From Candidatus Omnitrophota bacterium (GTDB lineage: Bacteria; Omnitrophota; Gorgyraeia; Gygaellales; Profunditerraquicolaceae): a DNA stretch of 64,000 nucleotides. A program made the translations under genes and the position numbers. The notes beneath the pieces are model-generated. The model ran no database searches and was not told where the DNA came from. It saw only the letters and a list, made by a program, of their open reading frames with translations. Positions 11,981 through 60,750 of the stretch are shown piece after piece; position 1 is the first letter of the stretch; each line of letters opens with the position of its first letter. The DNA lies in contig JALOQK010000004.1 of assembly GCA_025453395.1 (NCBI GenBank), positions 51,563-115,562 of the forward strand, read 5' to 3'.

Positions 11981-12541
11981 TTAAAACTTTACCTGCGGCG
12001 CCTGGCGTTCTTGGGGATCGCCAACCTCAAAGAAATCTTTTTTGATAAAACCCCCTAATTGAGCTACTATATTCACGGGGACAGTTTGAATAAGAGTATT
12101 AAATCTTCCCGCCTCATCATTGTAATACTGCCGGGCAAAGGTAATCCGATTCTCCGTGGAAATTAATTCCTCCTGAAGCTGTAAAACATTTTGATTAGCT
12201 TTTAGATCCGGGTATCTTTCAAATACCGCAAAGAGCGAACGAAGGGTTTGGCTTAAGAAATTCTCTGAAGCTGCTTTATCCTGCAAGCCCTTAGCATCAA
12301 TTGCCTGCATGCGCGCTTTTATTACCCGCTCTAAGGTGTCTTTTTCATGCGCCATGTAGCCTTTAACCGCCTCAACTAAATTAGGGATAAGGTCATGCCT
12401 TCTTTTAAGCTGCACGTCAATTTGGCTAACCGCATTCTCAACCCTGACCCTTAAAGCGATTAAATTATTATATATACCAAAAAACCATGCCAGCGCCACA
12501 ACAACCATGCCGCCTAAAATAATAAGCACTACTAACCCCAT
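11981..12541 (-). CDS. lemA: LemA family protein
   Basis: The single N-terminal TM helix begins at MGLVVLIIL, with a GGAGG RBS 7 nt upstream. It has the LemA conserved core. The ORF-track start at 12598 lies inside an intergenic hairpin element. Confidence 0.85.
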   Translation of the reverse strand: MGLVVLIILGGMVVVALAWFFGIYNNLIALRVRVENAVSQIDVQLKRRHDLIPNLVEAVKGYMAHEKDTLERVIKARMQAIDAKGLQDKAASENFLSQTLRSLFAVFERYPDLKANQNVLQLQEELISTENRITFARQYYNDEAGRFNTLIQTVPVNIVAQLGGFIKKDFFEVGDPQERQAPQVKF

Positions 12542-12554
12542 AGCTACCTCCTTC

Positions 12555-12597
12555 GCCCAGCAAGGGCGTACTTGGCACTCATTTATGCCAAGGCACA
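12555..12597 (-). repeat. intercistronic dual-hairpin element, divergent copy (GCCCAGCAAGGGC + GTACTTGGCA..TGCCAAGGCAC)
   Basis: Same architecture as the copies at 28759-28838 and 38041-38131. It sits between the polyferredoxin stop and the lemA RBS. Confidence 0.45.
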
Positions 12598-12619
12598 AAA
12601 CTTAAAAACATTAAAATAA

Positions 12620-13276
12620 CTAAACTTTATCTATCGCCTTTTTCGGACAGACCGACTTACAGCAAAGGCAGTTTAAACAATCCCTGTCTTTTATTTGCCC
12701 GGCAGACTTAAAAAGATAAGGTTTAATCCCGACCGGACAGGCTTTAGCGCAAAGCTTACATTCCACGCAAAGCTGAGGGTCAATCTTTAAATAATTTCTA
12801 GCGTAACTGGTAAGATGAATCATTGTTCCTACCGGGCACAAATAACAAAAGCTGCGCTGGTGGATAAACAAAGCCAAAACAACCCCTAATAAAGTGGTAG
12901 CGCTTAGCATAAAAACAAAAACGCGCGCTATCTTAGTAAGATCCGGATAAACACGATAGATATTAAAAACCAATGCGGACATTAGCAATGCCATAACCAA
13001 AACCCTAAAAACAATTTTCTTGAAAACCTGCGGAATGGGTTTCTGGGGGCTTATCTTCAAAATAAAAGCGTCCCAGAAGCTTCCTCTGGGGCAATACCAA
13101 TCGCACCATTTACGGCCATTCTTAAAACCGATAAATATCCCTAAAAGCATGCACACCGGTATAAATAAGCCTAAGACGGGATACGGCCAGCTTAAAGCAA
13201 GAATGGCCACAAATATAGCGGCTAGAAAAGTTTGTTTAAGCCTGCGGTGAGTGAGAAAAATATTATTCCCTGACAT
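12620..13276 (-). CDS. membrane-bound 4Fe-4S polyferredoxin (NapH/MauN-like)
   Basis: Several TM helices plus CVECKLCAKACP and CLNCLCCKSVCP motifs. Confidence 0.7.
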   Translation of the reverse strand: MSGNNIFLTHRRLKQTFLAAIFVAILALSWPYPVLGLFIPVCMLLGIFIGFKNGRKWCDWYCPRGSFWDAFILKISPQKPIPQVFKKIVFRVLVMALLMSALVFNIYRVYPDLTKIARVFVFMLSATTLLGVVLALFIHQRSFCYLCPVGTMIHLTSYARNYLKIDPQLCVECKLCAKACPVGIKPYLFKSAGQIKDRDCLNCLCCKSVCPKKAIDKV

Positions 13277-13283
13277 ATAAAAC

Positions 13284-14189
13284 TTAAGATCCTGCGCCGG
13301 TTAAATACCTGAAAGCGGATAATACCGCTTTCGCGCCTTCTCCGGCGGCGATGATTATCTGTTTTTCCGCAACATCGGTAACATCCCCTGCGGCAAAAAT
13401 ACCCGGGACGCTTGTCTTATTAAATCTATCCACTTTTATTTCGCCAAGGCTGTTTTTATCCACGCAATTGATAAAATCAGAATTGGGCAATAAACCTATT
13501 TCAACAAATACCCCTTCTGCCGGGATATCTCGAACAATTCCGCTATTATTGATTCTTACAGAATTCACAAATTTATCCCCCATAATTTCAATGACCTTTG
13601 AATTATTAAGCACTTCTGCGTTCTTTTCTTTCTGCAAAGCCTCTAACATTATAGCATCGCCGGTTATTTTTTCACCTGAATTTACGATATAAACCTTGCT
13701 GGCAATCCTAACTAGCTGCAAGGCGGCATCAAGCGCTGAATTTCCTGCGCCTATAACAGCAACAGGCTTGCCTTTAAAGATCGGGCCGTCGCATGTAGCG
13801 CAATAAGTTAAGCCTTTGTTCTTGAATTGTTCTTCACCGGGCACGTTAAGAGAACGAGACTTTTTACCCGACGCGATGATCAAACACCGCGCCTTATAAA
13901 CACCTTTAACCGTAGAAACGCGGATCATATTATCTACGGCTTCTACTGAAATTACATACTCTCTTTCATGAACAGGTATTTTATAAGCTCGCATATGCTC
14001 TTCAAACTTAAGAGCTAATTCGGGGCCGCTTATAAATTGATAGCCGGTATAATTCTGAATATCGCCGCTTGTGGAAGCCTGCCCTCCGATATCCAAGGTT
14101 AAGACAAGCATGTTCATTGCCTTTCTTGCGGCATAAACTGCGGCGGTAATCCCGGCGGGCCCGGCGCCAATAATAATCAAATCATACAT
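13284..14189 (-). CDS. trxB: thioredoxin-disulfide reductase
   Basis: GAGPAG FAD motif, CATC redox-active disulfide and GAGNSA NADPH motif. 301 aa. Confidence 0.9.
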   Translation of the reverse strand: MYDLIIIGAGPAGITAAVYAARKAMNMLVLTLDIGGQASTSGDIQNYTGYQFISGPELALKFEEHMRAYKIPVHEREYVISVEAVDNMIRVSTVKGVYKARCLIIASGKKSRSLNVPGEEQFKNKGLTYCATCDGPIFKGKPVAVIGAGNSALDAALQLVRIASKVYIVNSGEKITGDAIMLEALQKEKNAEVLNNSKVIEIMGDKFVNSVRINNSGIVRDIPAEGVFVEIGLLPNSDFINCVDKNSLGEIKVDRFNKTSVPGIFAAGDVTDVAEKQIIIAAGEGAKAVLSAFRYLTGAGS

Positions 14190-14192
14190 TGT

Positions 14193-14432
14193 TTATTTCA
14201 TTCCCAGGGCTTGTTTTATTTTATCTTTGTCAAAGCCAACGATAATTTCTCCTTCAATATCCACAACCGGCACTCCCATTTGAGAAGACTTGCTCATCAT
14301 TTCCTCTGCGGCTACTTGGTCCAAGGCGACATCTTTATTCTCAAAGATAAGGTTATTCTCTTTCAAGAATTCTTTAAGGCGGATGCAAAAAGAACAAGTG
14401 GAAGTGCTGTAAACTGTAATTTTCTTAGGCAT
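14193..14432 (-). CDS. glutaredoxin-like small redox protein
   Basis: Thioredoxin fold (ITVYSTSTCSFC...) with a CxxC active site. The start is taken at MPKK. Confidence 0.65.
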   Translation of the reverse strand: MPKKITVYSTSTCSFCIRLKEFLKENNLIFENKDVALDQVAAEEMMSKSSQMGVPVVDIEGEIIVGFDKDKIKQALGMK

Positions 14433-14452
14433 TTTTCTCTCCTGTGCGCGCC

Positions 14453-14917
14453 TCAAGCCTTAAGCTTAAGAGGGGCTAAATCCACAACCTGGTCAATTTT
14501 GACTAAAATAAAATAGGCTGGCGCGGGAAGGCTGGCTTCAGGATGATGCTTTAAAGGTTTATCCGCGCCAATATTTTTGATAAGCCTTGCGGCGATACGG
14601 CTGGTAATCCTAGTCTCCCAAATCTCTAAAAGATCTTTGCTGGCTTCCGCTATATGGACGATCTGGGCATAGCCTTTTAAACAAAAACCCTTGAAATTGT
14701 GCTCATCCACCATTGTTAGGCTGACGCAGGGGTTTGCCTTAAGATTAGAAAAGCTTTCGCGCTTGTATAAATCCAAAAGGTATATATCATCGTTACTGCC
14801 GATTCGAACAATTCCCTTACAGGCGCTATGCGGCCTTCCTTTTTTGTCAATGGTAGACAAAATAACAAACCCCTGCTGACTTAAGAAATCACGTACAGAT
14901 TCAGAAATTATGGGCAT
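14453..14917 (-). CDS. pyridoxamine 5'-phosphate oxidase family FMN-binding protein
   Basis: 154 aa split-barrel pattern (GFVILSTIDKKGRPHS...). Confidence 0.65.
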   Translation of the reverse strand: MPIISESVRDFLSQQGFVILSTIDKKGRPHSACKGIVRIGSNDDIYLLDLYKRESFSNLKANPCVSLTMVDEHNFKGFCLKGYAQIVHIAEASKDLLEIWETRITSRIAARLIKNIGADKPLKHHPEASLPAPAYFILVKIDQVVDLAPLKLKA

Positions 14918-15076
14918 TTATATCTTCTCAAACATGTCTTTACCCACGCCGCATTCCGGACAGACCCAATCACCGGGCAGGGACTCAAAAGAAGTTCCCG
15001 GGGCTACTCCATTATCCAGATCCCCAACAGCAGGGTCATAGATGTACCCGCAAACAGTGCACTTGTATTTGCTCAT
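14918..15076 (-). CDS. rub: rubredoxin (52 aa; absent from ORF track, below its size cut-off)
   Basis: Minus-strand translation gives [52 protein letters not shown]. It has two CxxCG knuckles and the canonical rubredoxin length. Confidence 0.85.
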
Positions 15077-15130
15077 ATTCACGATCCTCTCTGATACTAC
15101 TTCTTATTTTTCTTTGCTTTCTTTTTCCCC

Positions 15131-16354
15131 TTACATTTTCCGCAAGACATTTTTCACCTCCTTTGCGAATTGTATTGCAGCTTCATAACATGATTTTATT
15201 TCTTCTTGGCTGGGAGTAAACTTAACCGAAAAACTCTCTACGGGAAGATTAACCCCAAAAGATTTTAATTTATTTTCTATGCTTTCTACCGCGCCCCCTG
15301 CCCAGCCATAAGAACCAAAACAAAAACCAAGCCTTTCCCTGGGGGCAAAACCTTTTAATAATTCTAAAAATCCTGCCATGTTGGCCAACATATCGTTATC
15401 ATGCGTGGAAGAGCCTATGACAAAACCCTTGGCATCGAGCATCTCTTTGATGATCTGGGTGCGGCTAGAAGCATTTAAATCAAAAAGTTTTACCTCTATG
15501 CCAGAATCCATAAGCGCTCCGGCAATCACAGAAGCCAATTTCGCGGTATTTCCCCACATGGTCTCATAAACAATGACTACTTTTTCTTTACTGCTATTCT
15601 TGCCCCAATAAAGATAGGAATTAATGATCTTGGCTGGGTCTTTACGCCAGATAACTCCGTGGCTGGGGGCAATCATTTCAATAGGGATGCCTGATTTTAA
15701 TACCTGCTCTATCTTTCTTACTACTAAAGAACTCAAAGGCCAAAGTATATTCCCATAATACTTGGCTGCCTCATCCATCAGCGCGCAATTGTCTACAGTA
15801 TCGTCAAACCTGCCTGATGTTGCCAAATGCTGGCCAAAGGCATCATTGGGAAAAAGGATTTTTTCTTCGGGACAATAGCTAAACATGCTGTCTGGCCAAT
15901 GCAGCATGGGCGCTTCGATAAAAGACAAACTTCTCTTCCCTAATTTTAAGACCTCGCCTGTGCGCACTACCTGGAAATCTGGTTTGATAAAATAATATTT
16001 TTCTAATCCCTCTTTACATTTAAAGCTTCCATATAGTTTTGCTTTTGGGGCAAGCTTTAAAAGCTCCGGAAGCGATCCTGTATGGTCAGGCTCCAGATGA
16101 TTAACCACAATATAATCTATTTTCTCCAAGGGCACAATACCTCTTATATTATCAAATAATCCCTGGGAGAAATCTTTATGCACTGCATCAATAAGCGTTA
16201 CCTTATCATCGATAATCAGATAGGCGTTATAGGTTGTACCGCGTTCTGTGGCATAGGTATGCCCATGAAAATTACGCACATTCCAATCAATAGCCCCCAC
16301 CCAAAAGATATTTTCTTTTAATCTTATGTTTTCCATAAAAGTATCCTTATACAT
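15131..16354 (-). CDS. fprA: flavodiiron protein (FprA / rubredoxin:oxygen oxidoreductase family)
   Basis: Metallo-beta-lactamase-like diiron domain (HLEPDHTGS) followed by a flavodoxin domain. Alternative start MENIRL at 16336. Confidence 0.85.
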   Translation of the reverse strand: MYKDTFMENIRLKENIFWVGAIDWNVRNFHGHTYATERGTTYNAYLIIDDKVTLIDAVHKDFSQGLFDNIRGIVPLEKIDYIVVNHLEPDHTGSLPELLKLAPKAKLYGSFKCKEGLEKYYFIKPDFQVVRTGEVLKLGKRSLSFIEAPMLHWPDSMFSYCPEEKILFPNDAFGQHLATSGRFDDTVDNCALMDEAAKYYGNILWPLSSLVVRKIEQVLKSGIPIEMIAPSHGVIWRKDPAKIINSYLYWGKNSSKEKVVIVYETMWGNTAKLASVIAGALMDSGIEVKLFDLNASSRTQIIKEMLDAKGFVIGSSTHDNDMLANMAGFLELLKGFAPRERLGFCFGSYGWAGGAVESIENKLKSFGVNLPVESFSVKFTPSQEEIKSCYEAAIQFAKEVKNVLRKM

Positions 16355-16739
16355 TCACGTCCAAAGAACTTTCCCAAACCCCATGTATATTACAATAACT
16401 TTCCGCGATAATAGTGCCGGACTTCTCGGTTTTAAAAGAGAAATTCACTACCGGAGAGGTAAATATCGTGCTTGTATTGGGGCCTTGCGCTGATGAACCA
16501 TGAGACGCGAAGTCTATTTTTATTATTTGATAAGCAAATTTTTCATCTTTGGGTAAGAAGTAAACGTTAATCCAGGCAATGTGATGCTCGGTGGTATTGG
16601 GGTGGGCAATTTCTTTACCGACGCTTACTATAACATCAATAGAAGCGCCCTTAGCAACATTGGATTTCAATTCAATTACCGGGACATGCTTTTCTTTTTT
16701 CCAATCAGCAGACTGAATAATATCTTTCATCGTATTCAT
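16347..16739 (-). CDS. sor: superoxide reductase, 1Fe neelaredoxin type
   Basis: EKHVPVIE motif plus His/Cys iron ligands. There is no N-terminal desulforedoxin Cys cluster. Confidence 0.85.
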   Translation of the reverse strand: MNTMKDIIQSADWKKEKHVPVIELKSNVAKGASIDVIVSVGKEIAHPNTTEHHIAWINVYFLPKDEKFAYQIIKIDFASHGSSAQGPNTSTIFTSPVVNFSFKTEKSGTIIAESYCNIHGVWESSLDVNV

Positions 16740-16750
16740 ATTCCCTCCTT

Positions 16751-17461
16751 TTAATAACCAATGAATTTCTCGGTCTTAATGTTAGTTTGCGGGCAGTTTA
16801 TCCCTTGGGCTAAAACCTGCATTGCCTCTACCATCTTTGGCGGCCCAAAGATAAAAATTACCCTTTCTTGGGCATCACAGATATTAGCAGAAAGAAGCTC
16901 TTTGTTAATGCCTCCATAAAAACAGTTTTTATCTTTAGGCGCACATTCGGTTACAGTATAATAAACTTTCAAGGATTTATTGATTTCCATCCAATCATCC
17001 AGCTGTTTCTTAAAAGCTATTTCTTCTTCATTGCGGTTAGAATAAAAAACGGATATATCGCTTTGGATCTTGTTGCTTAAGACATACTCCAACATGGAAA
17101 TAACAGGTGTAATCCCTATGCCGCCGACCAAGAAACTGACCTTTTTAAATTGCTTCTCAAAAACACATGACCCCAAAGGGCCCTGAACAGACACGGAATC
17201 ATCTTTATTAAGGCCTAAAAGCTTATTTGAGAAACTGGACGCGCTTATCCTCTTGGTAACTTCGATATACCCTTTATCTGTACCGCAGGACAAAGAAAGA
17301 TATTTATTCAATTCTTTGTTACCAGGATTATGCTCATCAAAGATAAGGCGCATAAATTGACCAGGAAGAAAATCAACTCTTTCTTGCGGGAAGAAACGGA
17401 AACTGATCACAGTCGGGGTCCTTGGAATTTTTTCTATAAATTTCATCCGGAAATCTTTCAT
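16751..17461 (-). CDS. FAD/NAD(P)-binding ferredoxin-reductase-like oxidoreductase
   Basis: FNR-like two-domain pattern (RxYS-like FAD site, GGIGITP NAD motif). Candidate reductase for the rubredoxin/SOR/FprA chain. Confidence 0.65.
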   Translation of the reverse strand: MKDFRMKFIEKIPRTPTVISFRFFPQERVDFLPGQFMRLIFDEHNPGNKELNKYLSLSCGTDKGYIEVTKRISASSFSNKLLGLNKDDSVSVQGPLGSCVFEKQFKKVSFLVGGIGITPVISMLEYVLSNKIQSDISVFYSNRNEEEIAFKKQLDDWMEINKSLKVYYTVTECAPKDKNCFYGGINKELLSANICDAQERVIFIFGPPKMVEAMQVLAQGINCPQTNIKTEKFIGY

Positions 17462-17462
17462 G

Positions 17463-18605
17463 CTAAAAATTCCCCTTAAGCGTTGCGTCTTCAAGGCGAT
17501 TAATTTCTTCTTTTAATAAATCCGGCAGCGCCAAGACATCTACATCCATAAAGCCCCGCACAATAATTGACTGCGCCTGGTCTTCTGTAAACCCGCGGGC
17601 GCACAAATACTCAATCTCCTCTTTATTAATCTTGCCGATTGCCGCCTCGTGCGACATATCCACATCGCGGTAATCCGATTCCATTTCCGGGATGGCATGG
17701 ATTGTGCCTTTCTCGGATAAAATCAATCCCCGGCATTCCAAATGCGCCTTAACCTGCTGGCTTTCTGCCTTGATATGCCCGCGAGCTATTACCTTGCCGC
17801 CTGTGGATACCGCGCGAGAAACAATTTCCGCTTGGGTATTCTTAGCCTTCAAAATAACCCGGGAGCCGATATCTTGGAATGAGCCCGGGGAAGACAATAT
17901 AAGCGAATTAAAACTTGCCCGGGAGTCCCCGCCGGATAAGACTGCGGTTGGATACATAGTAATTTCCTTCACCGGCCTTAAACAGACATAATTAGAAACG
18001 AAGGTGGCACCCTCTTCTACCACAGCAATGCTCATAGGTTTTACTGAAACATCCTCTTTCCATGAGTGGATCATGGTAAAATTAAGATACGCGCCTTTCT
18101 TGACAAAGAATTCCGAGATCCCTAAATGAAAACCTTCATTGGCAGATTTTGAAGCGGAGCATCCGGTAATAAGATATACCCGAGCGCCCTCCTCTACAAT
18201 AATCAAATTGTGCACTTTTTGTTTAAAGCCCTGGGCTTTTAAAAAAAGGCACGCCTGCACCGGAAGTTGTACTTGAGCGCCTTTTCTGATCCTGATAAAA
18301 TAACCACCCTGAGTATCAAGGGGGAATTCCCGGCCCATCATCCGGAAATTCGCTCCGTAATAATCTTTTACTTCCGGATATTGGGCAAGCGCCTCTTCAA
18401 TGCTTAATACCTCGACCCCCTCTTGCAGGCTGTGAGAAAAATGCACCTGGGTATCTTCTTGGATAAAAGTCCCGGAACGGGTCTCTTGAGAGAAATCAAT
18501 CCCGGAAGAAGACATCGCCTTCTGGTCGTCAGCATTAAACTTATTCAACTCTTTGGATTTCATGGCAAATTTTGCATTTTTCATAACCTTTGGAACGTAT
18601 ATCAC
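17463..18605 (-). CDS. sufB: SufB/SufD-family Fe-S cluster assembly scaffold
   Basis: beta-helix SufBD fold motifs. It lies directly downstream of sufC, with overlapping ends. Confidence 0.8.
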   Translation of the reverse strand: MIYVPKVMKNAKFAMKSKELNKFNADDQKAMSSSGIDFSQETRSGTFIQEDTQVHFSHSLQEGVEVLSIEEALAQYPEVKDYYGANFRMMGREFPLDTQGGYFIRIRKGAQVQLPVQACLFLKAQGFKQKVHNLIIVEEGARVYLITGCSASKSANEGFHLGISEFFVKKGAYLNFTMIHSWKEDVSVKPMSIAVVEEGATFVSNYVCLRPVKEITMYPTAVLSGGDSRASFNSLILSSPGSFQDIGSRVILKAKNTQAEIVSRAVSTGGKVIARGHIKAESQQVKAHLECRGLILSEKGTIHAIPEMESDYRDVDMSHEAAIGKINKEEIEYLCARGFTEDQAQSIIVRGFMDVDVLALPDLLKEEINRLEDATLKGNF

Positions 18606-19266
18606 TAAACATCTTTTTAGGATCCCCCACGCACCAAAGTTTTCCGTTAATCATCATACAGCCTTTTTTCGCATTAATGTAGTCAAGAATATACCCGGTA
18701 TGGGTGATAATAAGCGCGGATTTACCTTCGCGCGACAAGAATTCTTTTAAAGCATCCCCCATAACCGAAATATTTTCTAAATCAACTCCGGATTCCGGCT
18801 CGTCCAATAAAATCATCTGCGGGTCCTGCAAAAGAAGCTGGAATAATTCCGAACGCTTCATTTCTCCTCCGGAGAAATCCAGATTAATATCGCGTTTGAG
18901 GTGGCTAGTAAGCGATAATCTTTCTGCGCATGAAGAGATCTGCTCTTTATCCCGGCTTAAGAAACCCGCCATCTGCTCGAGTTTTACCCCCCTTATCTTA
19001 GGAGGGTTTTGATACATAATCCCCAGCCCAAGCTTGACCCTTTGCTCAATAGTAAGCGAATTGATATCCTTGCCATTGATTAATATCTGTCCGCGGGTTA
19101 CGCGATAACCGCTAAAACCCATGATTGCTTTTACTAAAGTGGATTTTCCGCTGCCGTTGGGGCCGAATAAAATAGCCACTTCACCGGGCTTGATTTCTAA
19201 TTCTATCCCCTTTAATATCTGCTTATCCTGAGTTTCTACCGAAAGGTCTTTAATATCTAGAAACAT
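18541..19266 (-). CDS. sufC: Fe-S cluster assembly ATPase SufC
   Basis: Walker A GPNGSGKST, ABC signature LSGGE and Walker B ILLDEP. Confidence 0.85.
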   Translation of the reverse strand: MFLDIKDLSVETQDKQILKGIELEIKPGEVAILFGPNGSGKSTLVKAIMGFSGYRVTRGQILINGKDINSLTIEQRVKLGLGIMYQNPPKIRGVKLEQMAGFLSRDKEQISSCAERLSLTSHLKRDINLDFSGGEMKRSELFQLLLQDPQMILLDEPESGVDLENISVMGDALKEFLSREGKSALIITHTGYILDYINAKKGCMMINGKLWCVGDPKKMFSDIRSKGYEKCKICHEIQRVE

Positions 19267-19332
19267 CTTCTTTTTTCCCTGCTTGCGATAATGATATTAT
19301 TATATACCAAAATCCTTAACCCCATGCAAACT

Positions 19333-20625
19333 TTATTTAACGCCTAAAATATCCGCCAAATCTTTTTCCGCAGTAGTAACCAGCTTCAAATTATACTTAT
19401 CTTGAAGCAATTTCAGAACATTCGCGTTTAAGAATGCCGGAGCGCTGGGGCCAATGCGGATATTTTGGATACCTAAATAAAGCAGGCTTAAAAGTATCGC
19501 TACTGCCTTTTGTTCATACCAGGAAAGCACCATTGACAATGGCAATTGGTTCACCGAACAATTAAAAGCCTTAGATAAAGCAAGCGCTACCTGCACCGCA
19601 GAATAGGCATTATTACATTGCCCGATGTCAATTAAGCGCGGAACCCCCTCAATATCACCAAAATCAAGTTTATTGAAACGATATTTCCCGCAGGCCAAAG
19701 TTAAAATTATACAATCCTTGGGAACTTTCTGCGCGAATTCTGTGTAATAGTTTCTCCCCGGCTTGGCTCCGTCGCAACCACCGACTAAGAAGAAATGTTT
19801 TATTTTCCCGGATTTAACTAATCCCACGATTTTATCTGCAAGGCCTAATATCGCGGTATGGTGAAACCCCGTTTGTATGTTTTTCCCGGCAACTTCAGGA
19901 ATACTGCCTAATTCTAATGCCTTTTTAATCACAACAGAAAAATCTTTACGTTCTACATGCTTGGCACCCGCCATACCCACGATGCCGGAAGTAAAAAGCC
20001 TATCCAGGTATGTGCCAGAAGGCGGAATCTGGATACAGTTAGTTGTAACCAAAATTGCTCCGCCAAATTCATTAAATTCTTTTTTCTGTTCTTGCCAGGC
20101 GCCTCCAAAATTCCCCACAAGATGCTTAAACTGTTTTAATTTGGGATAACCATGCGCCGGCAACATCTCGCCATGGGTATAAATATTGACCCCTTTGCCT
20201 TCGGTTTGTTTTAAAAGTTCATAAAGATCCGGCAGGTCGTGCCCCGTTATCAAAATACCCGGGCCTTTTTTAGTCCCGGTATAGACATTCGTTGGCACGG
20301 GATTACCGAAATTATCGGTATTTGCCTTATCTAATAATTCCATGGCCTTGAAATTAATTTTCCCGCATTCTAAAACTAGAGCCAGATAATCATTCAGATC
20401 GAAATTAACATTGGTTAAGGTGGTAAAAAGCGCGCGGTGCATAAAACCATCAACTTCATCGTCTTTAAAACCCATTTCTCTGGCATGATACGCGTAAGCT
20501 GCCACGCCTTTTAAGCCAAATATTAAGGTATCCTGCAAACTTTGAATATCTTCATTCTTGCCGCATACACCTTGCTTTGTGCAACCTGTTCCAAGAGCAG
20601 TTTGTTCACATTGATAACAAAACAT
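19333..20625 (-). CDS. hcp: hybrid-cluster protein / hydroxylamine reductase (short class)
   Basis: MFCYQCEQT N-terminal cubane-cluster motif and conserved hybrid-cluster ligands. Confidence 0.9.
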   Translation of the reverse strand: MFCYQCEQTALGTGCTKQGVCGKNEDIQSLQDTLIFGLKGVAAYAYHAREMGFKDDEVDGFMHRALFTTLTNVNFDLNDYLALVLECGKINFKAMELLDKANTDNFGNPVPTNVYTGTKKGPGILITGHDLPDLYELLKQTEGKGVNIYTHGEMLPAHGYPKLKQFKHLVGNFGGAWQEQKKEFNEFGGAILVTTNCIQIPPSGTYLDRLFTSGIVGMAGAKHVERKDFSVVIKKALELGSIPEVAGKNIQTGFHHTAILGLADKIVGLVKSGKIKHFFLVGGCDGAKPGRNYYTEFAQKVPKDCIILTLACGKYRFNKLDFGDIEGVPRLIDIGQCNNAYSAVQVALALSKAFNCSVNQLPLSMVLSWYEQKAVAILLSLLYLGIQNIRIGPSAPAFLNANVLKLLQDKYNLKLVTTAEKDLADILGVK

Positions 20626-20671
20626 AACCCTATCCTCCTTTTAACTGTTTATACTTTTTTTATCCTACCCA

Positions 20672-21076
20672 TTAATTTCCCCTTATTAATTGGGACAATC
20701 TAATGCCTTTGAGCTGCCGCCTGACATAAGATTCTATTTCCTGGATTTTCTTGCGCACAAAACAAGTCTTAGTGTTTGGGCAAGGCATTTTCTTGAAGCT
20801 GCATTCATTTAACCTAAAGGGCCCTTGAAAAACACACATCAACTTTTCTAAGGTAATATTTCTCGCGCCTGGCGTTAATTTAAACCCCCCACCTGGGCCT
20901 TTTATAGAACCAAGAAGGCCATTTCTGCATAAAACCTGGGTGATCTTTCTTAAAAATGGCCGCGGGATCCCTAGATTCTTTACCAATTCTGATACAGGAA
21001 TAATCTTTTTAGAATGACGCTGTATATATATAAGAGACCTTAATGCATAATCTGTATCGCGAGTAATTAGTTTCAT
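20672..21076 (-). CDS. Rrf2-family regulator (NsrR-like, Fe-S type) upstream of hcp
   Basis: wHTH N-terminus and a Cys triad (CVFQGPFRLNEC...CP). Only 46 nt separate it from hcp. Confidence 0.8.
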   Translation of the reverse strand: MKLITRDTDYALRSLIYIQRHSKKIIPVSELVKNLGIPRPFLRKITQVLCRNGLLGSIKGPGGGFKLTPGARNITLEKLMCVFQGPFRLNECSFKKMPCPNTKTCFVRKKIQEIESYVRRQLKGIRLSQLIRGN

Positions 21077-21223
21077 CTATAATCTTTCGGTTATATAGCT
21101 TTAAAAGAAGCGGGCAGTTTTACGTCGTGCCCAGGACATGTTACTACAGCCCTCTTTGCAGTGCGCTACCGGTCTAAGCATATACTTAATAGTCACATTC
21201 ATCTGGCACCTCCCTCTGGATAA

Positions 21224-28758: not shown

Positions 28759-28838
28759 ATACCTCCTTCGCAGTAGCGAACACCGGCGCAATTTGCCGCA
28801 ATTGCGGCATACTTTGCCTTCCGATAGGCAAAGGTACA
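28759..28838 (-). repeat. conserved intercistronic dual-hairpin element, copy 1 (GTACCTTTGCC-TATCGGAA-GGCAAAGTA + GCCGCAATTGCGGC + GGTGTTCGCTACTGCGAAGGAGG)
   Basis: Its sequence and architecture (two hairpins, GGTGTTC tract, RBS) are shared with the copy at 38041-38131. It lies between the NDH-2-like stop and the doxX start. Confidence 0.55.
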
Positions 28839-29969
28839 TTATTGCCGGCTATTTAATATTAAACTTCTAAAAACCGAAAGCTTATTCCCCCACCCTACTG
28901 TGCGCCATAAGCATAAAAGGTAATGCAGGAAAATCGCTTTCCTGCCTTTTACCTTTCGCCCTAATACTATACCACAAGCAAAATTATTTGCCATGGGAAT
29001 AATATAGCCCCAATCGCGCGGCTTAAAGACAGCCTTGGGTTTATTTTCTAAGGACCGCGCAATATTAAGCGCTACGGTATGGCCTTGGGCAATGGCAAAT
29101 TGCACGGCCATGCGCAAGAAACTCTTGCCTTGGCTAAAACAAGCGCTGTCTCCAGCGGCAAAACACCCCTCTCTAAATTCTAAATAATTATCCACCATGA
29201 TTCTTCCTTGAGGATTTTTAGGAATATTCAAGGTTTGGAGATACTGTGGAGTTTTTACTCCAGCTGCCCAAATAAGCAATGACTCTTTTAAAATAGTTTT
29301 ATCAGATAAAACTAAATCCTCCCCCTCTATATTCTCAATAAAAACCCCGCAGCGTATTTCAATACTCATAATTTTTAAATTACTCGCCACATAGTCTTTC
29401 ATCCACTCTGGCAAAGGGCCTAAAATAGAACTGGCGCGCTCTAAAATAATGACGGGCTTGGATATTTTTCGCTTTTGAAGATGCAGTTTTAAATTAGTTG
29501 CTACCTCTATTCCTGTGTAACCGGCCCCAGAAATAACAAAATTCTGGAAATCCTGGGCCCAAAGGCCATCAAGGATTTTTTGCGCGTCTGCAGGAGAATC
29601 TAACTTATAGGCATAATCCCTAATCTTGTTATTGCCATAAAAGTTTGTTTCTGTGCCAGTTGCAATTACCAAATAATCATAGTTCAAATTTATATGCGCG
29701 CAATGCGCAATTTTATTTTCCAGATCTAAACTTATTACTTCCTCTTGAATAAACTGACAACCGTATTTCTTAGCCAACGACCCTATAGGAAAATAAAGTT
29801 TGCTAGTTAAGATGCCCCTTCCGATACAATCCGGCATTAAGGGCAAACAATTAAAGCTGCCCCCCTTATCGATAATTGTTACGCTTATTTTATCCCGAAA
29901 AGAAGAAAGCCGCCATGCGGTAACTGCGCCGGCATACCCACAACCGATAATAACTACTTTTTTCTTCAT
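28839..29969 (-). CDS. FAD-dependent pyridine-nucleotide-disulfide oxidoreductase (NDH-2 / sulfide:quinone oxidoreductase-like)
   Basis: GCGYAG Rossmann motif and a second nucleotide-binding GAGYTG motif. Confidence 0.65.
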   Translation of the reverse strand: MKKKVVIIGCGYAGAVTAWRLSSFRDKISVTIIDKGGSFNCLPLMPDCIGRGILTSKLYFPIGSLAKKYGCQFIQEEVISLDLENKIAHCAHINLNYDYLVIATGTETNFYGNNKIRDYAYKLDSPADAQKILDGLWAQDFQNFVISGAGYTGIEVATNLKLHLQKRKISKPVIILERASSILGPLPEWMKDYVASNLKIMSIEIRCGVFIENIEGEDLVLSDKTILKESLLIWAAGVKTPQYLQTLNIPKNPQGRIMVDNYLEFREGCFAAGDSACFSQGKSFLRMAVQFAIAQGHTVALNIARSLENKPKAVFKPRDWGYIIPMANNFACGIVLGRKVKGRKAIFLHYLLCLWRTVGWGNKLSVFRSLILNSRQ

Positions 29970-37977: not shown

Positions 37978-38058
37978 TTATCCCAAACAAGGTTTTCTGC
38001 CTTTATTGGCTTTCTTAGAACGCCAGTTTAATTTACCTCTACGTTTACGTTTTCCCAT
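37978..38058 (-). CDS. candidate 26-aa highly basic peptide ([26 protein letters not shown]). Its stop lies 4 nt before the trpB2 ATG
   Basis: ATG preceded by GAAAGGGG, which aligns with the RBS of the doxX leader copy. A 32-aa alternative starts at 38073. It was not in the ORF track (below 60 aa). Confidence 0.25.
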
Positions 38059-38131
38059 ATCTGCCCCTTTCATAGTAATGAACACCGCCCCAGAAAGGGG
38101 CGTACTTTGCCTTCCAATAGGCAAAGGTACG
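38041..38131 (-). repeat. conserved intercistronic dual-hairpin element, copy 2 (GTACCTTTGCC-TATTGGAA-GGCAAAGTAC + GCCCCTTTCTGGGGC + GGTGTTCATTACTATGAAAGGGG)
   Basis: Near-identical hairpin, including the loop, and the GGTGTTCRYTACTRYGAARGGRG tract are shared with 28759-28838. Confidence 0.55.
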
Positions 38132-41643: not shown

Positions 41644-42552
41644 AACTGGGGGTTGGCTCTTCCATCTGCGATGGATCCATCCCCATTCCTGCGGGTACAT
41701 ACGGATATAGCGCTCAATTATATCAGTTAAACGCTGCACATTTAATATAATTGTGTCCTGAGAATTTTTGCCTTCTATCAAAGGGACTTCTTCATCAAAG
41801 ATAATTTTATGCGTATCATCAGCTTGCCTCAGAATAAAGCAAGGCAAAAGAACTGCCCTGGTGCGTTGGGCAAAGATAACCGGGCCTGTGGCAGTAGCTG
41901 CCTTGCGGCCAAAAAAATCCACAAATACCCCGGATGTGCCGAAATTCTGGTCAATAGGCAAGAATATTATCTCGTTATTGCGCAAGGCTTTTATGGTATT
42001 GTCCACGCAGACATTCTTGGGATAACTGTAAATAGTTTTTACCTTATATTTCTCGCGCTTCTCTAAGAATATTTTCTCTACCCGCGCGTCGTGCATCGGG
42101 CGCATGATCCCGCCTATGGCATATCCTTCCAAGCTTAATTTCCCCAGCATAATCGGGAAGTTGCCAAAGTGGCCGCTAACCAAAATCACGCCTCTTTTTT
42201 TTGCTAAAGCCTGATCCAATTTTTCCTTGTTGGCAATGGTTATTCTTTCTTTTAAAAGCCAAGGTTTATCCATCATGAACATAAGCTCTAACGATGCTTT
42301 AGACATAAAGGTAAAACTATCCCGGGCAATTTTCTCTATTTCTGCTTGTGTTTTATCTGGAAAGGCCATGCGCAAACTTTCCAGGGCGATCTTTCTTTGT
42401 CTGGCAATAACCGCATAGCCAAAAGCGGCAATGCCCTTAGCAAAAGGATACAAAAATCTCCAGGGCGTTATGTTTATAATCTTAGCGCAACTAACAAGCC
42501 CAATAAAGGCCAGGAATCGCGAAAATTCTTTTTTCTTCTTTTTAAAATCCAT
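41635..42552 (-). CDS. lpxL: LpxL/HtrB-family lipid A (Kdo2-lipid IVA) acyltransferase
   Basis: 305 aa, N-terminal anchor and LPLAT-like acyltransferase motifs (H..D-type region around SGHFGNF). This assignment is inferred from family resemblance. Confidence 0.7.
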   Translation of the reverse strand: MDFKKKKKEFSRFLAFIGLVSCAKIINITPWRFLYPFAKGIAAFGYAVIARQRKIALESLRMAFPDKTQAEIEKIARDSFTFMSKASLELMFMMDKPWLLKERITIANKEKLDQALAKKRGVILVSGHFGNFPIMLGKLSLEGYAIGGIMRPMHDARVEKIFLEKREKYKVKTIYSYPKNVCVDNTIKALRNNEIIFLPIDQNFGTSGVFVDFFGRKAATATGPVIFAQRTRAVLLPCFILRQADDTHKIIFDEEVPLIEGKNSQDTIILNVQRLTDIIERYIRMYPQEWGWIHRRWKSQPPVGK

Positions 42553-42556
42553 TTGT

Positions 42557-42598
42557 CAGCTATCAGCTTTCAGCTATCAGCTATCAGCTTTCAGCGCA
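42557..42598. repeat. tandem heptamer repeat (TCAGCTW)x6, ending 4 nt before the lpxL start
   Basis: Seen directly: TCAGCTA TCAGCTT TCAGCTA TCAGCTA TCAGCTT TCAGCGC. Confidence 0.8.
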
Positions 42599-42624
42599 TG
42601 GCGCCGTAAACTGTTAACTGTAAA

Positions 42625-45696: not shown

Positions 45697-45711
45697 ATCA
45701 TTACCTCGTTT

Positions 45712-45746
45712 TCAGCTATCAGCTGTCAGCCTTCAGCTATCAGCTA
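45712..45746. repeat. tandem heptamer repeat TCAGCTA TCAGCTG TCAGCCT TCAGCTA TCAGCTA between the secA stop and the lnt RBS
   Basis: Seen directly. It is almost identical to the copy at 59416-59450. Confidence 0.8.
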
Positions 45747-51150: not shown

Positions 51151-52388
51151 TTATTATGCAAATTTTTCTTTCTTAAAAGCCTATGATAAGTAATAGCGAA
51201 TCGATGCGCCTGATCACGGATATGCCGGATAAGATTTAACGCTTTTGAGCCTTCTTTAAAGCGCACTGGAAAAGCGCGATTGACAATATATAAATTTTCT
51301 CTTTTTTTAGCGATACTGCATAAAGCAATAGAAAGCCCTAACTTTCTTATTTCCCTCAAGGCTGTCTCTAAATGCCCTTTGCCTCCATCAATAAGCACTA
51401 AATCCGGCAAGGCAAGATTGTTTGAAACAAGATAAGAATACCTCCTTCGCACTACTTCCGCCATCATCCCGTAATCATTAACCCCGGAAACAGTCTTGAT
51501 GCGAAACCTGCGGTAATTATTTTTGTCTGGATGGCCGTTATAAAAACTGACCATTGAAGCGCAGGCCTGCTGCCCGGCAATATTAGAGATATCAAAGGCT
51601 TCAATTCTTAAAGGCACTTTTTCTAAATTAAGCGCCTTGCGCAATTGCTCCAAGGCGTCATCATTGCTAAAAGGACTTGCCTGGCGCATCACCGAAAGGG
51701 CCTGGATTTGATCCCTTAATCCAGCTGCCTCTTCAAATTCCCGCTTCACGGACTTTTTGTGCATCTTCAAGGAAAGCTCTTGGATTAATTCTTCAAACTT
51801 TCCCTCTAAGAAAAGGATGATTTCTTTGATAATCTTTTTATACTCATCCCGGTCCATTGCTCCAACGCAAACAGCCGGGCACATCTTTAAGCGCGCATAC
51901 AAACAAGGGGCCTTGGGCATCTTGCGGCAGGAGCGGAAACCAAAAAGCCTGCGCACTAATTTCAGTGTCACACGCAAACTTTGCGCATCAGTAAAAGGGC
52001 CAAAATACAGGGAATTATCGTTTTTCTTAATCTGGCGCCTGCGGCAAATGGACACTATCGGGAAATCTTCAGAGGTTATTTTTATAAAAGGAAAGGATTT
52101 ATCGTCTTTTAGATCAGTATTGTAGCGCGGCTGTTTATCGCGGATAAGCTTTGCCTCCAGGATATTAGCCTTAGATTCGGTAGGGGCACTTATATAATCC
52201 AAATCCTCTACCCTGGAAACAAGCGCCTGTATCTTTGAAGAAAGCTGCTTGCTAAAATAAGAATAGACCCTTTTCTTTAAAGACTTGGCCTTGCCGATGT
52301 AAATAATCTTTTTATCTTTATCCTTAAATATATATACCCCGGGGGCATCAGGCAGGGAAATAACTTTCTTTTTAAGCGCTTCATCCAT
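51147..52388 (-). CDS. uvrC: excinuclease ABC subunit C, short form (no C-terminal HhH2 domain)
   Basis: GIY-YIG (GVYIF..YIGKA), a UvrBC interaction region and an RNaseH-like endonuclease domain. It is only 413 aa long. Confidence 0.75.
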   Translation of the reverse strand: MDEALKKKVISLPDAPGVYIFKDKDKKIIYIGKAKSLKKRVYSYFSKQLSSKIQALVSRVEDLDYISAPTESKANILEAKLIRDKQPRYNTDLKDDKSFPFIKITSEDFPIVSICRRRQIKKNDNSLYFGPFTDAQSLRVTLKLVRRLFGFRSCRKMPKAPCLYARLKMCPAVCVGAMDRDEYKKIIKEIILFLEGKFEELIQELSLKMHKKSVKREFEEAAGLRDQIQALSVMRQASPFSNDDALEQLRKALNLEKVPLRIEAFDISNIAGQQACASMVSFYNGHPDKNNYRRFRIKTVSGVNDYGMMAEVVRRRYSYLVSNNLALPDLVLIDGGKGHLETALREIRKLGLSIALCSIAKKRENLYIVNRAFPVRFKEGSKALNLIRHIRDQAHRFAITYHRLLRKKNLHNK

Positions 52389-59396: not shown

Positions 59397-59415
59397 CTCT
59401 TTCCCCTTTCATTTT

Positions 59416-59450
59416 ATCAGCTTTCAGCTGTCAGCCTTCAGCTATCAGCT
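59416..59450. repeat. tandem heptamer repeat TCAGCTT TCAGCTG TCAGCCT TCAGCTA TCAGCTA between the paaK stop and the ACT-protein RBS
   Basis: Seen directly. Confidence 0.8.
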
Positions 59451-60750
59451 AAAGAATTCTTTTATCTATAACTCTTTTGGCTTTTCCTTCGCTTCGCTCA
59501 AGGACCTTAGGCTCAACAAGCTTAACTTTCACAAAAACACCAAGCACGGATTCAATTTCTTTCTTAATCTTGTCGGAAAGCGCGCTCAAACTCTTCATTT
59601 CATCAGAAAAGAATTTATCTTCCACTTCCACCAAAACTTCCAGCTCATCCATGTCGCCGACTTTTCGATCTACCACAAGCTGATAATGCGGTTTAGTCCC
59701 TTCAATGCCCAGAAGAACGTGCTCAATCTGCGACGGGAAGACATTGATCCCGCGCACAATGATCATATCATCTGTGCGGCCTTTGATCTTGCTTATGCGC
59801 GGGGATGTCCTCCCGCAACGGCATTTTTCATACTTTATAGAAACAATATCCCGCGTGCGATAACGCAATAAAGGAAGCCCTTCTTTGATAAGCGTAGTAA
59901 TAACTAATTCCCCGAATTCACCTTCTTTTACCTCTTTGCCGGTTTTGGGGTTTATTATTTCGGGATAAAAAACATCCGAAAAAATATGTAAACCCTTTTT
60001 ATGCTGGCATTCCTGGGCCACTCCCGGCCCGATGACTTCAGATAAGCCGTAAACATCCGTAGCAAGAATATTCCATGTTTTTTCTATTTCGCCTCTCATG
60101 GTCTCGCTCCACGGCTCTGCCCCAAAGACCCCCACTTCCCAACTGCTTTCTTTAGGGTTTAATCCCATTTCCCGGGCTTCTTCTGACATATACAAACAAT
60201 AACTGGGCGTGCAGGCTAAAATCCTGGGCTTAAAATCATTCATGATCTTTAACTGCCTTTTGGTTTGCCCCGATGAAGCAGGGATTACCGTTAACCCCAT
60301 CTCAAGAGCCCCATAATGAAAACCTAATCCTCCGGTAAACAAACCATAGCCATAGGCAATCTGGATAATGTCCCCCGGAACAGCTCCAGCGCAGCCTAAG
60401 ACGCGCGCCATCACTTCTGACCAAAGCCCTAAATCTTCTTTGGTGTAACCAACTACCGTGGGATTGCCGGTCGTCCCGCTTGAGACATGGATCTCGGCTA
60501 TGTCTTTAAGAGGGCTTGAAAAAAGATTGAAAGGGTAACTATCGCGCATGTCTTCTTTGGTGGTAAAAGGAATCTTTTTCAAATCACGCAAATCCTGTAT
60601 ATCCGAAGGGCGCACTCCAGCTGCTTCTAATTTCTTGCGGTAGAGTTTGTTATTATCCCAGATATACTGCACTTTTTTGCGCAAGCGTTCAGACTGCAGA
60701 ATTTGCATTTCTCCAGCAGACATACATTCCATATTCTCATTCCAAATCAT
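59449..60750 (-). CDS. paaK: phenylacetate--CoA ligase family, second paralog
   Basis: SSGTTGNPT and YGLSE motifs. The start is taken at MIWNENMECMS, abutting the iorB stop. Confidence 0.85.
   Translation of the reverse strand: MIWNENMECMSAGEMQILQSERLRKKVQYIWDNNKLYRKKLEAAGVRPSDIQDLRDLKKIPFTTKEDMRDSYPFNLFSSPLKDIAEIHVSSGTTGNPTVVGYTKEDLGLWSEVMARVLGCAGAVPGDIIQIAYGYGLFTGGLGFHYGALEMGLTVIPASSGQTKRQLKIMNDFKPRILACTPSYCLYMSEEAREMGLNPKESSWEVGVFGAEPWSETMRGEIEKTWNILATDVYGLSEVIGPGVAQECQHKKGLHIFSDVFYPEIINPKTGKEVKEGEFGELVITTLIKEGLPLLRYRTRDIVSIKYEKCRCGRTSPRISKIKGRTDDMIIVRGINVFPSQIEHVLLGIEGTKPHYQLVVDRKVGDMDELEVLVEVEDKFFSDEMKSLSALSDKIKKEIESVLGVFVKVKLVEPKVLERSEGKAKRVIDKRIL

Follow-up and report, generated by a model that had tools for sequence, protein, structure and literature searches.

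The element immediately 5′ of the lemA Shine-Dalgarno (SD) sequence in an Omnitrophota contig is, in our judgement, probably a solo unit of a mobile dual-hairpin repeat that has at most a generic structural effect. Units of this kind are about 42 nt long and form a dispersed family, which we found at more than 100 metagenome loci and in MAGs. The family is apparently undescribed so far, as our search of the literature on Omnitrophota repeats and on nested stem-loop MITEs found no description of the units; what it returned concerned unrelated primers, or REPs and MITEs in general. We read them as a new form of RPE/REP/MITE-like small mobile palindromes. The Omnitrophota are a large and nearly uncultured phylum whose expression signals and mobile DNA are little known.

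Results

Two hairpins adjoin the lemA Shine-Dalgarno sequence

We analyzed a 64-kb stretch of DNA (the window) by inspecting the sequence, by folding it as RNA, and with two models of the repeat. R1 is a covariance model made from 71 metagenome composites, in which units are nested in one another, and it holds zero window sequences. R2 is a 29-nt hairpin-only model that was run with the filters off and was trained partly on the three copies in the window. The parts of the lemA copy and its surroundings are given below, with the basis of each call in brackets.

12568 to 12596, minus strand: big hairpin of the lemA copy, alpha type (sequence, fold, R1 and R2 matches)
12555 to 12567, minus strand: small G+C hairpin GCCC-UUGCU-GGGC of the lemA copy, abutting the SD (sequence, fold, R1)
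12547 to 12554, minus strand: GAAGGAGG, the lemA Shine-Dalgarno sequence (sequence)
11981 to 12541, minus strand: lemA coding sequence, 186 aa, with an M48 peptidase gene next (called product LemA, PF04011)
12597 to 12619, minus strand: A+U-rich 23-nt spacer UUAUUUUAAUGUUUUUAAGUUUU from the stop of the 4Fe-4S gene to the unit (sequence)

The genes around the lemA copy lie on the minus strand, and the plus-strand text that the first-pass annotation had read is the antisense. The upstream gene for a 4Fe-4S protein ends with a TAG stop at 12622 to 12620 (minus strand), and the intergenic spacer of 78 nt from this stop to the lemA ATG contains both hairpins. As RNA, the big hairpin reads GUGC-C-UUGGCA, loop UAAAUGAG, UGCCAA-GUAC. 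Its 29 nt form 4 bp, a bulged C and 6 bp, including one G·U pair whose plus-strand equivalent is an A·C mismatch. The 13-nt small hairpin serves as both the inner P3 and the SD-proximal P4 of the full composites; P4 variants resembling it, GCCC UUACU GGGC AAAGGAGG, occur in two metagenome loci (L120 and L048). The SD core GGAGG is at 12551 to 12547, followed by UAGCU and by the ATG at 12541 to 12539 (minus strand).

Folding the spacer, we find both hairpins in its minimum-free-energy structure. The 42-nt unit in sense folds into these two hairpins with −17.0 kcal/mol (z −2.7), and the antisense gives −13.1 kcal/mol (z −1.7), which is weaker because the G·U pair becomes an A·C mismatch. No promoter-like or terminator-like sites were seen in the lemA spacer (terminator scan over 12300 to 12900). 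Therefore, lemA is probably co-transcribed with the upstream redox genes, and the unit is probably an intercistronic RNA structure in a polycistronic transcript.

The window holds three copies

Searching the 64-kb window with R1, we obtained exactly three matches, all on the minus strand: 12614 to 12538 at the lemA copy (43.1 bits, E 4e-13), 38148 to 38070 at a small-ORF copy (42.5 bits) and 28855 to 28777 at a doxX copy (38.1 bits). These are precisely the three copies alluded to in the first-pass annotation, recovered by a model built without any window sequence, and the dual-hairpin architecture that it had placed immediately 5′ of the lemA ribosome-binding site is there as described. R2 returned the same three copies at 37 to 40 bits (lemA 36.9) and nothing else above 15.9 bits; since its training included the window copies, only the absence of further copies is informative here. 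The other two copies have the following parts.

28795 to 28837, minus strand: doxX copy, beta-type unit GUAC-[C]-UUUGCC UAUCGGAA GGCAAA-GUAU + GCCGC AAUU GCGGC (sequence, R1, R2, fold)
28762 to 28794, minus strand: doxX copy, 3′ parts (sequence, fold, R1)
28794 to 28790, minus strand: doxX copy, spacer AAAUU, followed by GC at 28789 to 28788
28787 to 28781, minus strand: doxX copy, outer-stem 3′ arm GCCGGUG
28780 to 28767, minus strand: doxX copy, SD-proximal hairpin UUCGC UACU GCGAA
28766 to 28762, minus strand: doxX copy, SD GGAGG, with the doxX ATG at 28755 (DoxX by Pfam)
28844 to 28850, minus strand: doxX copy, outer-stem 5′ arm AGCCGGC, in the last codons of the upstream gene (R1 pairs it with GCCGGUG)
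38087 to 38130, minus strand: small-ORF copy, beta-type unit GUAC-[C]-UUUGCC UAUUGGAA GGCAAA-GUAC + GCCCC UUUCU GGGGC (sequence, R1, R2, fold)
38064 to 38086, minus strand: small-ORF copy, 3′ parts (sequence, fold)

The gene upstream of the doxX copy has its stop TAA at 28841 to 28839. The 3′ parts of the small-ORF copy are GGUG, a remnant of the outer-stem 3′ arm, then the hairpin UUCAU UACU AUGAA, the SD AGGGG and the ATG at 38058, which opens a basic ORF of 26 aa; in the fold, an alternative pairing hides the SD of this copy. Comparing the SD-proximal hairpins of the two copies, we find that two compensatory pairs differ (UUCGC/GCGAA versus UUCAU/AUGAA). The beta big hairpins of the window, GUAC-C-UUUGCC UAUYGGAA GGCAAA-GUAY, have the same layout of 4 bp, bulged C and 6 bp as the lemA copy, and the upper stem of the lemA copy is set apart from theirs by two double changes, U-A to G-C and C-G to A-U. 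The genes that follow the three copies are functionally unrelated.

The sequence after the lemA hairpins had been said to match the doxX copy, and GCGAAGGAGGTA is indeed exact in both; it occurs exactly three times in the window, the third time in a coding region (51439-51450), against 0.27 matches expected by chance from shuffles at up to one mismatch. This string is made up of the SD and the 3′ arm of the SD-proximal hairpin, an arrangement found family-wide, for example as GGTGTTCGCTATCTGCGAAGGAGG in L107.

Units share one scaffold and nest in one another

The big hairpin of all units follows a shared 29-nt scaffold, namely N-Y-A-C, a bulged C, 6 bp, the loop UAWNKGAW and G-U-R-N, with a C-G pair adjoining the closing pair of the 6-bp stem. 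Directly 3′ of it stands a short G+C hairpin with a pyrimidine-rich loop of 4-5 nt. We call the subfamily of the lemA copy alpha and that of the doxX and small-ORF copies beta; each recurs with a near-invariant sequence in many gene contexts of many other genomes. L007 and L040 contain a gamma type, CCCUUCC..GGAAGGG + CCCCUCUGGGG. Alpha, beta, gamma and also the outer hairpin with its P4 all consist of a big hairpin and a small G+C hairpin.

Aligning 20 big hairpins from different subfamilies, we got a gapless alignment over 29 nt with A3, C4, the bulged C5, the C10-G21 pair, loop positions U12, A13, G17 and A18, and G26 and U27 invariant or near-invariant. The remaining stem positions vary freely and still pair when more copies are aligned, with 99.5% of the stem cells paired and changes on both sides in 8 of 10 pairs, although these 20 units were hand-picked and biased to pairing and so illustrate the scaffold rather than prove it.

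A full composite is an outer unit with alpha in the loop of its big hairpin, and alpha may in turn hold beta in its own loop; the small hairpin of the outer unit extends precisely to the SD of the following gene. In the composite consensus, the order is the outer stem P1, UAUC, the alpha unit, GGAU, the P1 3′ arm, P4 with its 3′ arm running into AAGGAGG, and the start codon. The alpha consensus within it is GCAC-C-UUGGCA UAAAGGAU UGCCAA-GUGC + GCCCC UUCU GGGGC, and this inner hairpin is nearly invariant across the 71 composites. In the outer stem P1 of the same 71 composites, three positions show 4-5 pair types each. Its double-change cells number 105, a count attained by 0 of 500 shuffles (28.6), and its pairing falls from 92% to 31-41% when the partners are slid. 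P4 covaries between loci as well (UUCCGC/GCGGAA, UGCGC/GCGCA, UUCAC/GUGAA, CCCUUA/UAAGGG and others).

A beta unit occupies the alpha loop in many loci; in L004, L005, L007 and L008, this alpha is in turn enclosed by the outer stem. The reverse arrangement, alpha inside a beta-type stem, is seen in L018, L084 and L108. The nesting site is constant: in the loop of the host, the nested unit follows UAWN and precedes G(G)AW. The L008 leader shows both states, empty as CACCCGGCC UUAUCGGAU CGGCCGGUG and filled as CACCCGGCC UUAUU[unit]GGAUCGGCCGGUG. Tandem Repeats Finder, run on the four loci with beta inside alpha, did not capture the unit spacing of ~131 nt. Counting loops over the loci, we found TAAAGGAT 53 times, TAAATGAT 23 times, TATAGGAT 14 times and TATCGGAT 11 times; the regex hairpin finders behind these counts are noisy and register-ambiguous, and were used for loop statistics only. 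GGA is present in ~75% of the loops, and about a quarter have UGA instead.

These observations bear on the idea of compensatory evolution in the first-pass annotation. The stems do differ by compensatory changes and the fold is kept. However, alpha and beta are each conserved elsewhere and are nested in each other, and therefore the difference between them reflects paralogous subfamilies and not in-situ compensatory drift of one local element. The view of the lemA copy as a diverged version of the same local regulatory element as the other two is likewise not supported, as alpha and beta are separate subfamilies.

The lemA copy is a family member by its 29-nt scaffold hairpin, its short G+C hairpin with a pyrimidine-rich loop and its significant R1 score. 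It departs from the scaffold only at A3 (a G, giving the G·U pair) and at the last loop base (a G, not U or A). Its loop UAAAUGAG has UGAG and no GGA, and ends in G where the family has a near-invariant U. No outer-stem partner was found for it, the P1 positions being marked as non-pairing in the R1 alignment. The covarying outer stem around an alpha unit that defines full composites is thus missing, and the copy scores 43 bits versus 60-101 bits. Judged by its sequence, a copy without P1, without a separate P4 and without the consensus GGA looks like a minimal or decayed one; the departing last loop base fits with decay and is no proof of it.

The family is widespread in Omnitrophota

Applying R1 to the metagenome loci, we obtained 130 matches in 100 loci, among which the full composites reached 60-101 bits. 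Scanning metagenomes for the 3′ half of a lemA-type unit had yielded 117 stretches, of which a few are chance matches (L039, L053, L117). In species-representative genomes, an exact-pattern scan for the beta hairpin gave nine stretches: five look like chance and four, from two MAGs each of Omnitrophota and 'Planctomycetales', carry the element. Each of these four has the beta unit within the loop of a lemA-type hairpin, which is itself within a third stem, ACACC-C-GGCC...GGCC-GGUGU; the lemA-type arms there are GYACCUUGGCA...UGCCAAGURC + GCCCYUNCUGGGC. The collection scans used exact patterns, and the breadth of the family given here is accordingly an underestimate that is biased towards the consensus.

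The whole window had no match in Rfam 15 at the gathering threshold. With E values up to 10, the lemA spacer and one full composite gave only chance-level Rfam hits (E at least 0.3). A tRNA/tmRNA scan found none. In viral contigs, the alpha pattern had one chance match without a hairpin, and the beta pattern had none.

Units are gained and lost between close relatives

The leaders of L047 and L007 are orthologous, sharing the promoter region and the downstream gene (MDWNPEVK...). Relative to the L047 leader, that of L007 has three extra blocks: two units of gamma type, a beta unit nested in alpha, and an additional unit of the outer type.

A second case is inside a gene. In L046, a composite of exactly 84 nt lies in pgk between GATTGC and (A/G)TAGGC, and is read in-frame as 28 aa (...KFLNDC[APGFMAPWHKGLPSAPLLGREAGARSCA]VGDSIKK...). 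The Pfam PGK match spans this insert, with 163 residues against 134 profile positions. The insert has no counterpart in the PGKs of the PDB, and its flanks abut at residue 109 of a solved PGK. It was absent from all 15 best PGK homologues, one of which is 90% identical. Comparing the filled and the empty pgk site at the nucleotide level, we find a difference of 84 nt and no target duplication (one pair resolved).

Other in-frame copies, in rlmN (L022, L044), in a DUF1573 gene (L026) and in L089, use the same reading frame. The L026 copy comes after the signal peptide of the DUF1573 protein, and the L089 copy is near the C-terminus. The copies in pgk, rlmN and the DUF1573 gene share the peptide ..APG.IAPWHKGLPSAP.LGG.., and all verified coding insertions are in the sense orientation. 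A peptide search for further translated copies with a 56-aa concatemer returned 4 candidates, none a real match. The element-bearing genomes were sampled as fragments and gene calls at the loci were crude; crude ORF calling produced many false 'inside gene' calls through N-terminal over-extension, and we claim coding insertions only where they were verified by translation, Pfam or homologues.

At the insertion flank, +1 is a G, usually in GGA, GAU, GAA or GUA. The 5′ flanks vary (UAUC, UAAAU, UAUAG, UGC, CGG) and no fixed target is evident. In summary, gain and loss between close relatives is shown, and the dual-hairpin units are, or recently were, mobile.

Units sit in the sense orientation before Shine-Dalgarno sequences

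To place the units relative to genes, we took 72 non-redundant alpha-containing elements having at least 200 nt on both sides. In sense, 37 of the 72 are followed within 120 nt by an SD-like motif, a start codon and an ORF, versus 4 of 72 in the antisense control. Distances to the start codon, measured from a point 15 nt beyond the alpha-motif match that lies near the end of the 3′ arm of the outer stem, cluster at 19-37 nt, where P4 and the SD alone intervene, and at 64-75 nt, where a further unit intervenes as well. Among the inner P1 pairs, G·U (25) outnumbers A·C (10), only a mild lean to pairing of the sense strand at the RNA level. The sense/SD bias is compatible with orientation- and site-specific insertion, with selection for a leader function, or with both.

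Discussion

How would a mobile unit come to stand before lemA, and what would it do there? An alpha unit may have inserted immediately 5′ of the lemA SD, or may have been left there after loss of an outer stem. As RNA, it would fold into two stable hairpins, leaving GGAGG single-stranded. By analogy with REP sequences and 5′-stabiliser hairpins, the structured block upstream of the SD could slow 5′-to-3′ or endonucleolytic decay of the lemA-M48 segment, and on the same analogy could fix the accessibility of the SD. For the mobilisation, we conjecture a hairpin-recognising, single-strand process of the HUH/Y1 type, to which the lack of target duplication, the strand-specific insertion and the hairpin with an extrahelical base point. 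Performing tblastn on the collected fragments, we found no IS608 TnpA, and the RAYT query hit one gene (in L124); none of the collected fragments had a transposase linked to the units.

Rather unlikely is that the units are a functional mRNA-leader module. Here a global RNA-binding protein or the 30S subunit would bind the loops UAAAGGAU and the SD-proximal hairpin and so set how well many genes are translated or how stable their transcripts are; lemA would actually be regulated by its copy, and mobility would be the means of spread and not the reason for persistence. The loop UAAAGGAU resembles an SD and contains a match to the CsrA-type motif A(N)GGA; its consensus is conserved across subfamilies. 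The sense orientation with tight SD spacing (37/72 versus 4/72, peak at 19-37 nt), the covariation of the SD-proximal hairpin between loci and within the window, the sequestered SD of the small-ORF copy and the mild sense-strand excess of G·U over A·C all agree with it. However, roughly a quarter of the loops have UGA and not GGA, the lemA copy with its UGAG among them, and GGA is essential for binding of the CsrA type in the CsrA/RsmA family. A search for csrA by tblastn found none, which weighs little as it covered ~0.9 Mb of fragments with approximate queries. No leader function is obvious for the in-frame coding insertions or for the nested copies, orthologues of lemA manage without the element, and the downstream genes are functionally unrelated. 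Even so, the sense/SD bias and the covarying SD-proximal hairpin could mean that the family is kept for a leader function and that the lemA copy is relevant to lemA expression.

We consider it quite improbable that the units are classical REP/REPIN sequences mobilised by a RAYT. They are short imperfect palindromes with an extrahelical base and no target duplication, and one element-bearing contig (L124) has a gene for a RAYT-like Y1 transposase (Pfam Y1_Tnp 63.9 bits; NCBIfam REP_Tyr_transpos 76.1 bits versus a cutoff of 80). But the inverted repeats on either side of this gene are its own, are unrelated to the units and recur in other loci. Moreover, the units are nested or in direct tandem and not in inverted pairs, and they lie 5′ of genes and not at 3′ ends, and enter coding sequence.

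The common fold, the two compensatory pairs by which copies differ and the position of all three window copies just 5′ of an SD would also suit one conserved riboswitch- or attenuator-like RNA that serves lemA, doxX and the small ORF alike and has diverged by compensation at lemA. This reading is largely refuted and we give it very little credence: alpha and beta are each near-invariant elsewhere and nested in one another, there is no Rfam match, the plain hairpins come with no conserved junction or pocket, the genes are unrelated, lemA orthologues lack the element, and coding insertions occur. Least credible of all is an intrinsic terminator or attenuator closing the upstream redox-gene operon before lemA, since two stable hairpins do follow a stop codon in the 78-nt spacer but no U tract comes after either, the scan finds nothing, and the second hairpin runs straight into the SD GAAGGAGG with no promoter-like site to restart lemA transcription. 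A promoter or terminator identity of the lemA element was rejected for want of any such site in the spacer.

Taking the units as mobile repeats, we compared them with known small elements. PMC10969869, citing Ogata et al. 2000, describes RPEs as small palindromic repeats found between genes and in-frame in unrelated housekeeping genes. Like RPEs, Omnitrophota units occur in-frame in unrelated genes, keep the frame and add a conserved peptide, a trait of the family and not of the lemA copy. Unlike RPEs, which are ~100-150 bp and confined to Rickettsia, the units are ~42 nt with composites of 84 nt and more, and are found in Omnitrophota; most of their copies directly precede an SD in a leader, and units nest within their own hairpin loop. 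We know of no report of SD-proximity or self-nesting as RPE traits. Judged informally, the units have no apparent sequence relation to RPEs.

REPs are 20-40 nt long, are transcribed within mRNAs and can stabilise upstream segments; they are extragenic, typically at gene 3′ ends or between convergent genes, and often in inverted pairs. The units resemble REP/BIME/REPIN sequences as dispersed imperfect palindromes with an extrahelical base, conserved nucleotides at the stem base and no target duplication. They differ in that they lie in sense 5′ of an SD, are nested or directly tandem rather than in inverted pairs, and are in some cases intragenic rather than extragenic; the sole RAYT seen (L124) carries another repeat.

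Among bacterial MITEs, Correia, ERIC, BOX and RUP elements are listed with effects on expression in the review PMC10969869. The units are likewise non-autonomous, structured, modular (with a BOX-like variable number of modules), co-transcribed and sometimes intragenic, but they lack the usual terminal inverted repeats and a target duplication (pgk site), are much smaller, and self-nest at a defined position of the loop.

Members of the IS200/IS605 family have hairpin-defined ends, no inverted terminal repeats and no target duplication, and insert strand-specifically. The units share hairpins and the lack of target duplication with IS200/IS605 PATEs; however, a unit consists of two dissimilar hairpins, no conserved tetra- or pentanucleotide target emerged beyond the G at +1, and no cognate TnpA was found in the collected fragments.

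Stable 5′ structures and SD-like leader sequences of the STAB-SD type protect mRNAs. The units also recall CsrA/RsmA leaders in their GGA-containing loops upstream of the SD and in a site overlapping the SD. They differ from these as GGA is not obligatory (the lemA loop UAAAUGAG has none), as the stems are conserved far beyond the needs of binding, and as copies occur inside coding sequence. The CsrA-type leaders are a functional analogy only.

Among small mobile palindromes, the units are unusual in their self-nesting, their SD-adjacent placement and their 42-nt, in-frame-compatible length. We tentatively raise a wider idea, namely that they are an undescribed class of non-autonomous elements with four properties jointly. 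They would integrate strand-specifically 5′ of G(G)A-type sequences without target duplication; their preferred targets would be the site just 5′ of an SD and their own hairpin loop, which would make the nesting fractal; the 42-nt stop-free unit length would permit survival inside genes; and many Omnitrophota genes would have taken them over as their standard structured leader. The niche of such a class would be the ribosome-binding region and its mover a putative hairpin-recognising enzyme.

If the units are what we propose, R1 and R2 are a ready marker for annotating hundreds of leaders, and marking the units with them guards against wrong calls, for instance of spurious N-terminal extensions or of apparent 'insertions' in pgk or rlmN. 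The units would then also be, to our knowledge, a second clear case outside Rickettsia of palindromic repeats in-frame within housekeeping genes. They would offer a natural system to study the targeting of a hairpin element to its own loop and to sites near the SD, and a possible influence of such elements on translation initiation. The lemA copy is ordinary when taken alone, and it is the family revealed by it that merits dedicated study.

For lemA, the message is modest, and the element is no evidence of a lemA-specific riboregulator. On four other Omnitrophota contigs, one of them from Ca. Velamenicoccus archaeovorus, the lemA-M48 pair is kept (lemA 70-80% identical) and the dual-hairpin unit is absent upstream. 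As the lemA loci of relatives are without the unit and the window copies precede unrelated genes, the lemA copy is not specific to lemA; a lemA-specific regulatory role for it is unlikely, and ligand-specific control by it is not expected.

Separately, we observed a different set of nested hairpins upstream of lemA in one relative.

Dual-hairpin units inside coding genes

In the fetched genome and metagenome stretches (L-numbers), we found 84-nt composites, in which one or more dual-hairpin units are nested in the hairpin loop of another, lying in frame within coding genes. They interrupt pgk (L046), rlmN (L022 and L044), a DUF1573 gene (L026) and a coding gene of L089, and the reading frame is constant throughout (..APG.IAPWHKGLPSAP.LGG..). 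The empty-site counterpart of the pgk insertion is present in L134. A further presence/absence difference is seen near the 3′ end of a Lys/Glu-rich ORF that is apparently orthologous in two stretches:
L080, 3618-3661: one dual-hairpin unit
L043, 540-618: two dual-hairpin units in tandem

Matches to the alpha subfamily, to which the lemA copy belongs, also lie within a conserved unit of ~185 nt (GGGUCCCUCUC[alpha unit]GUAUGAGCCGAGGGGAAACCUCUCU...AGAGAGGUAAUUCCUCGC) in L019, L031, L043, L045, L058, L063, L082, L088 and L126. The flanks of these loci are unrelated to one another, and the orientation of the ~185-nt unit is independent of the adjacent genes. It may represent the capture of an alpha unit, either by a different mobile element or by a small RNA gene.

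The small-ORF copy and the lemA neighbourhood

The copy at 38130..38087 (minus strand) directly precedes a small ORF, and a TrpB-like gene is the next one after it:
37978-38058, minus strand: putative gene, an ORF of 26 aa, very basic, with no Pfam match

In the minimum-free-energy fold of 38063-38101 (minus strand), GCCCCUUUC pairs with GAAAGGGGC, the Shine-Dalgarno (SD) region, and the small hairpin is not formed. The small hairpin and the GCCCCUUUC/GAAAGGGGC pairing are predicted to be mutually exclusive structures, in one of which the SD would be hidden.

Oxidative-stress and Fe-S genes form a long cluster on the same strand (12620-21100, via the fetched stretch L001), at whose end the lemA-M48 pair stands. 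This cluster encodes Rrf2, hybrid-cluster protein, SufBD, desulfoferrodoxin, flavodiiron protein, rubredoxin, glutaredoxin, a thioredoxin-reductase-like protein and a 4Fe-4S protein. The upstream neighbour of lemA is different in the relatives.

Other repeats and RNA elements

Three 7-nt repeat arrays (AGCTGAT / AGCTGAA / GGCTGAC) were located in the window, each closely preceding the SD of a gene on the minus strand:
42539-42604
45709-45746
59414-59451
They are therefore a second leader-associated repeat of the same genome, unrelated to the dual-hairpin units. Omnitrophota leaders hold further families of nested hairpins:
L129, 9815-10000: upstream of lemA, UAGACCUUCGC..GCGAAGGGUCUA containing inner hairpins
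L007, 5110-5215, and also L040: gamma-type units, CCCUUCC..GGAAGGG plus CCCCUCUGGGG

A classical REP/RAYT-type system, separate from the dual-hairpin units, was found in L124. Its gene is flanked on both sides by inverted repeats, CAGGGACGGTTCT..GTGTCCCTT (region 1770-2385), that are also found in L089, L068, L061, L082 and L022:
L124, 1820-2299, minus strand: Y1_Tnp / REP-associated tyrosine transposase-like gene

Two riboswitches in the fetched loci bear no relation to the dual-hairpin element:
L088, 1464-1548: c-di-GMP-I riboswitch
L019, 7305-7379: fluoride riboswitch
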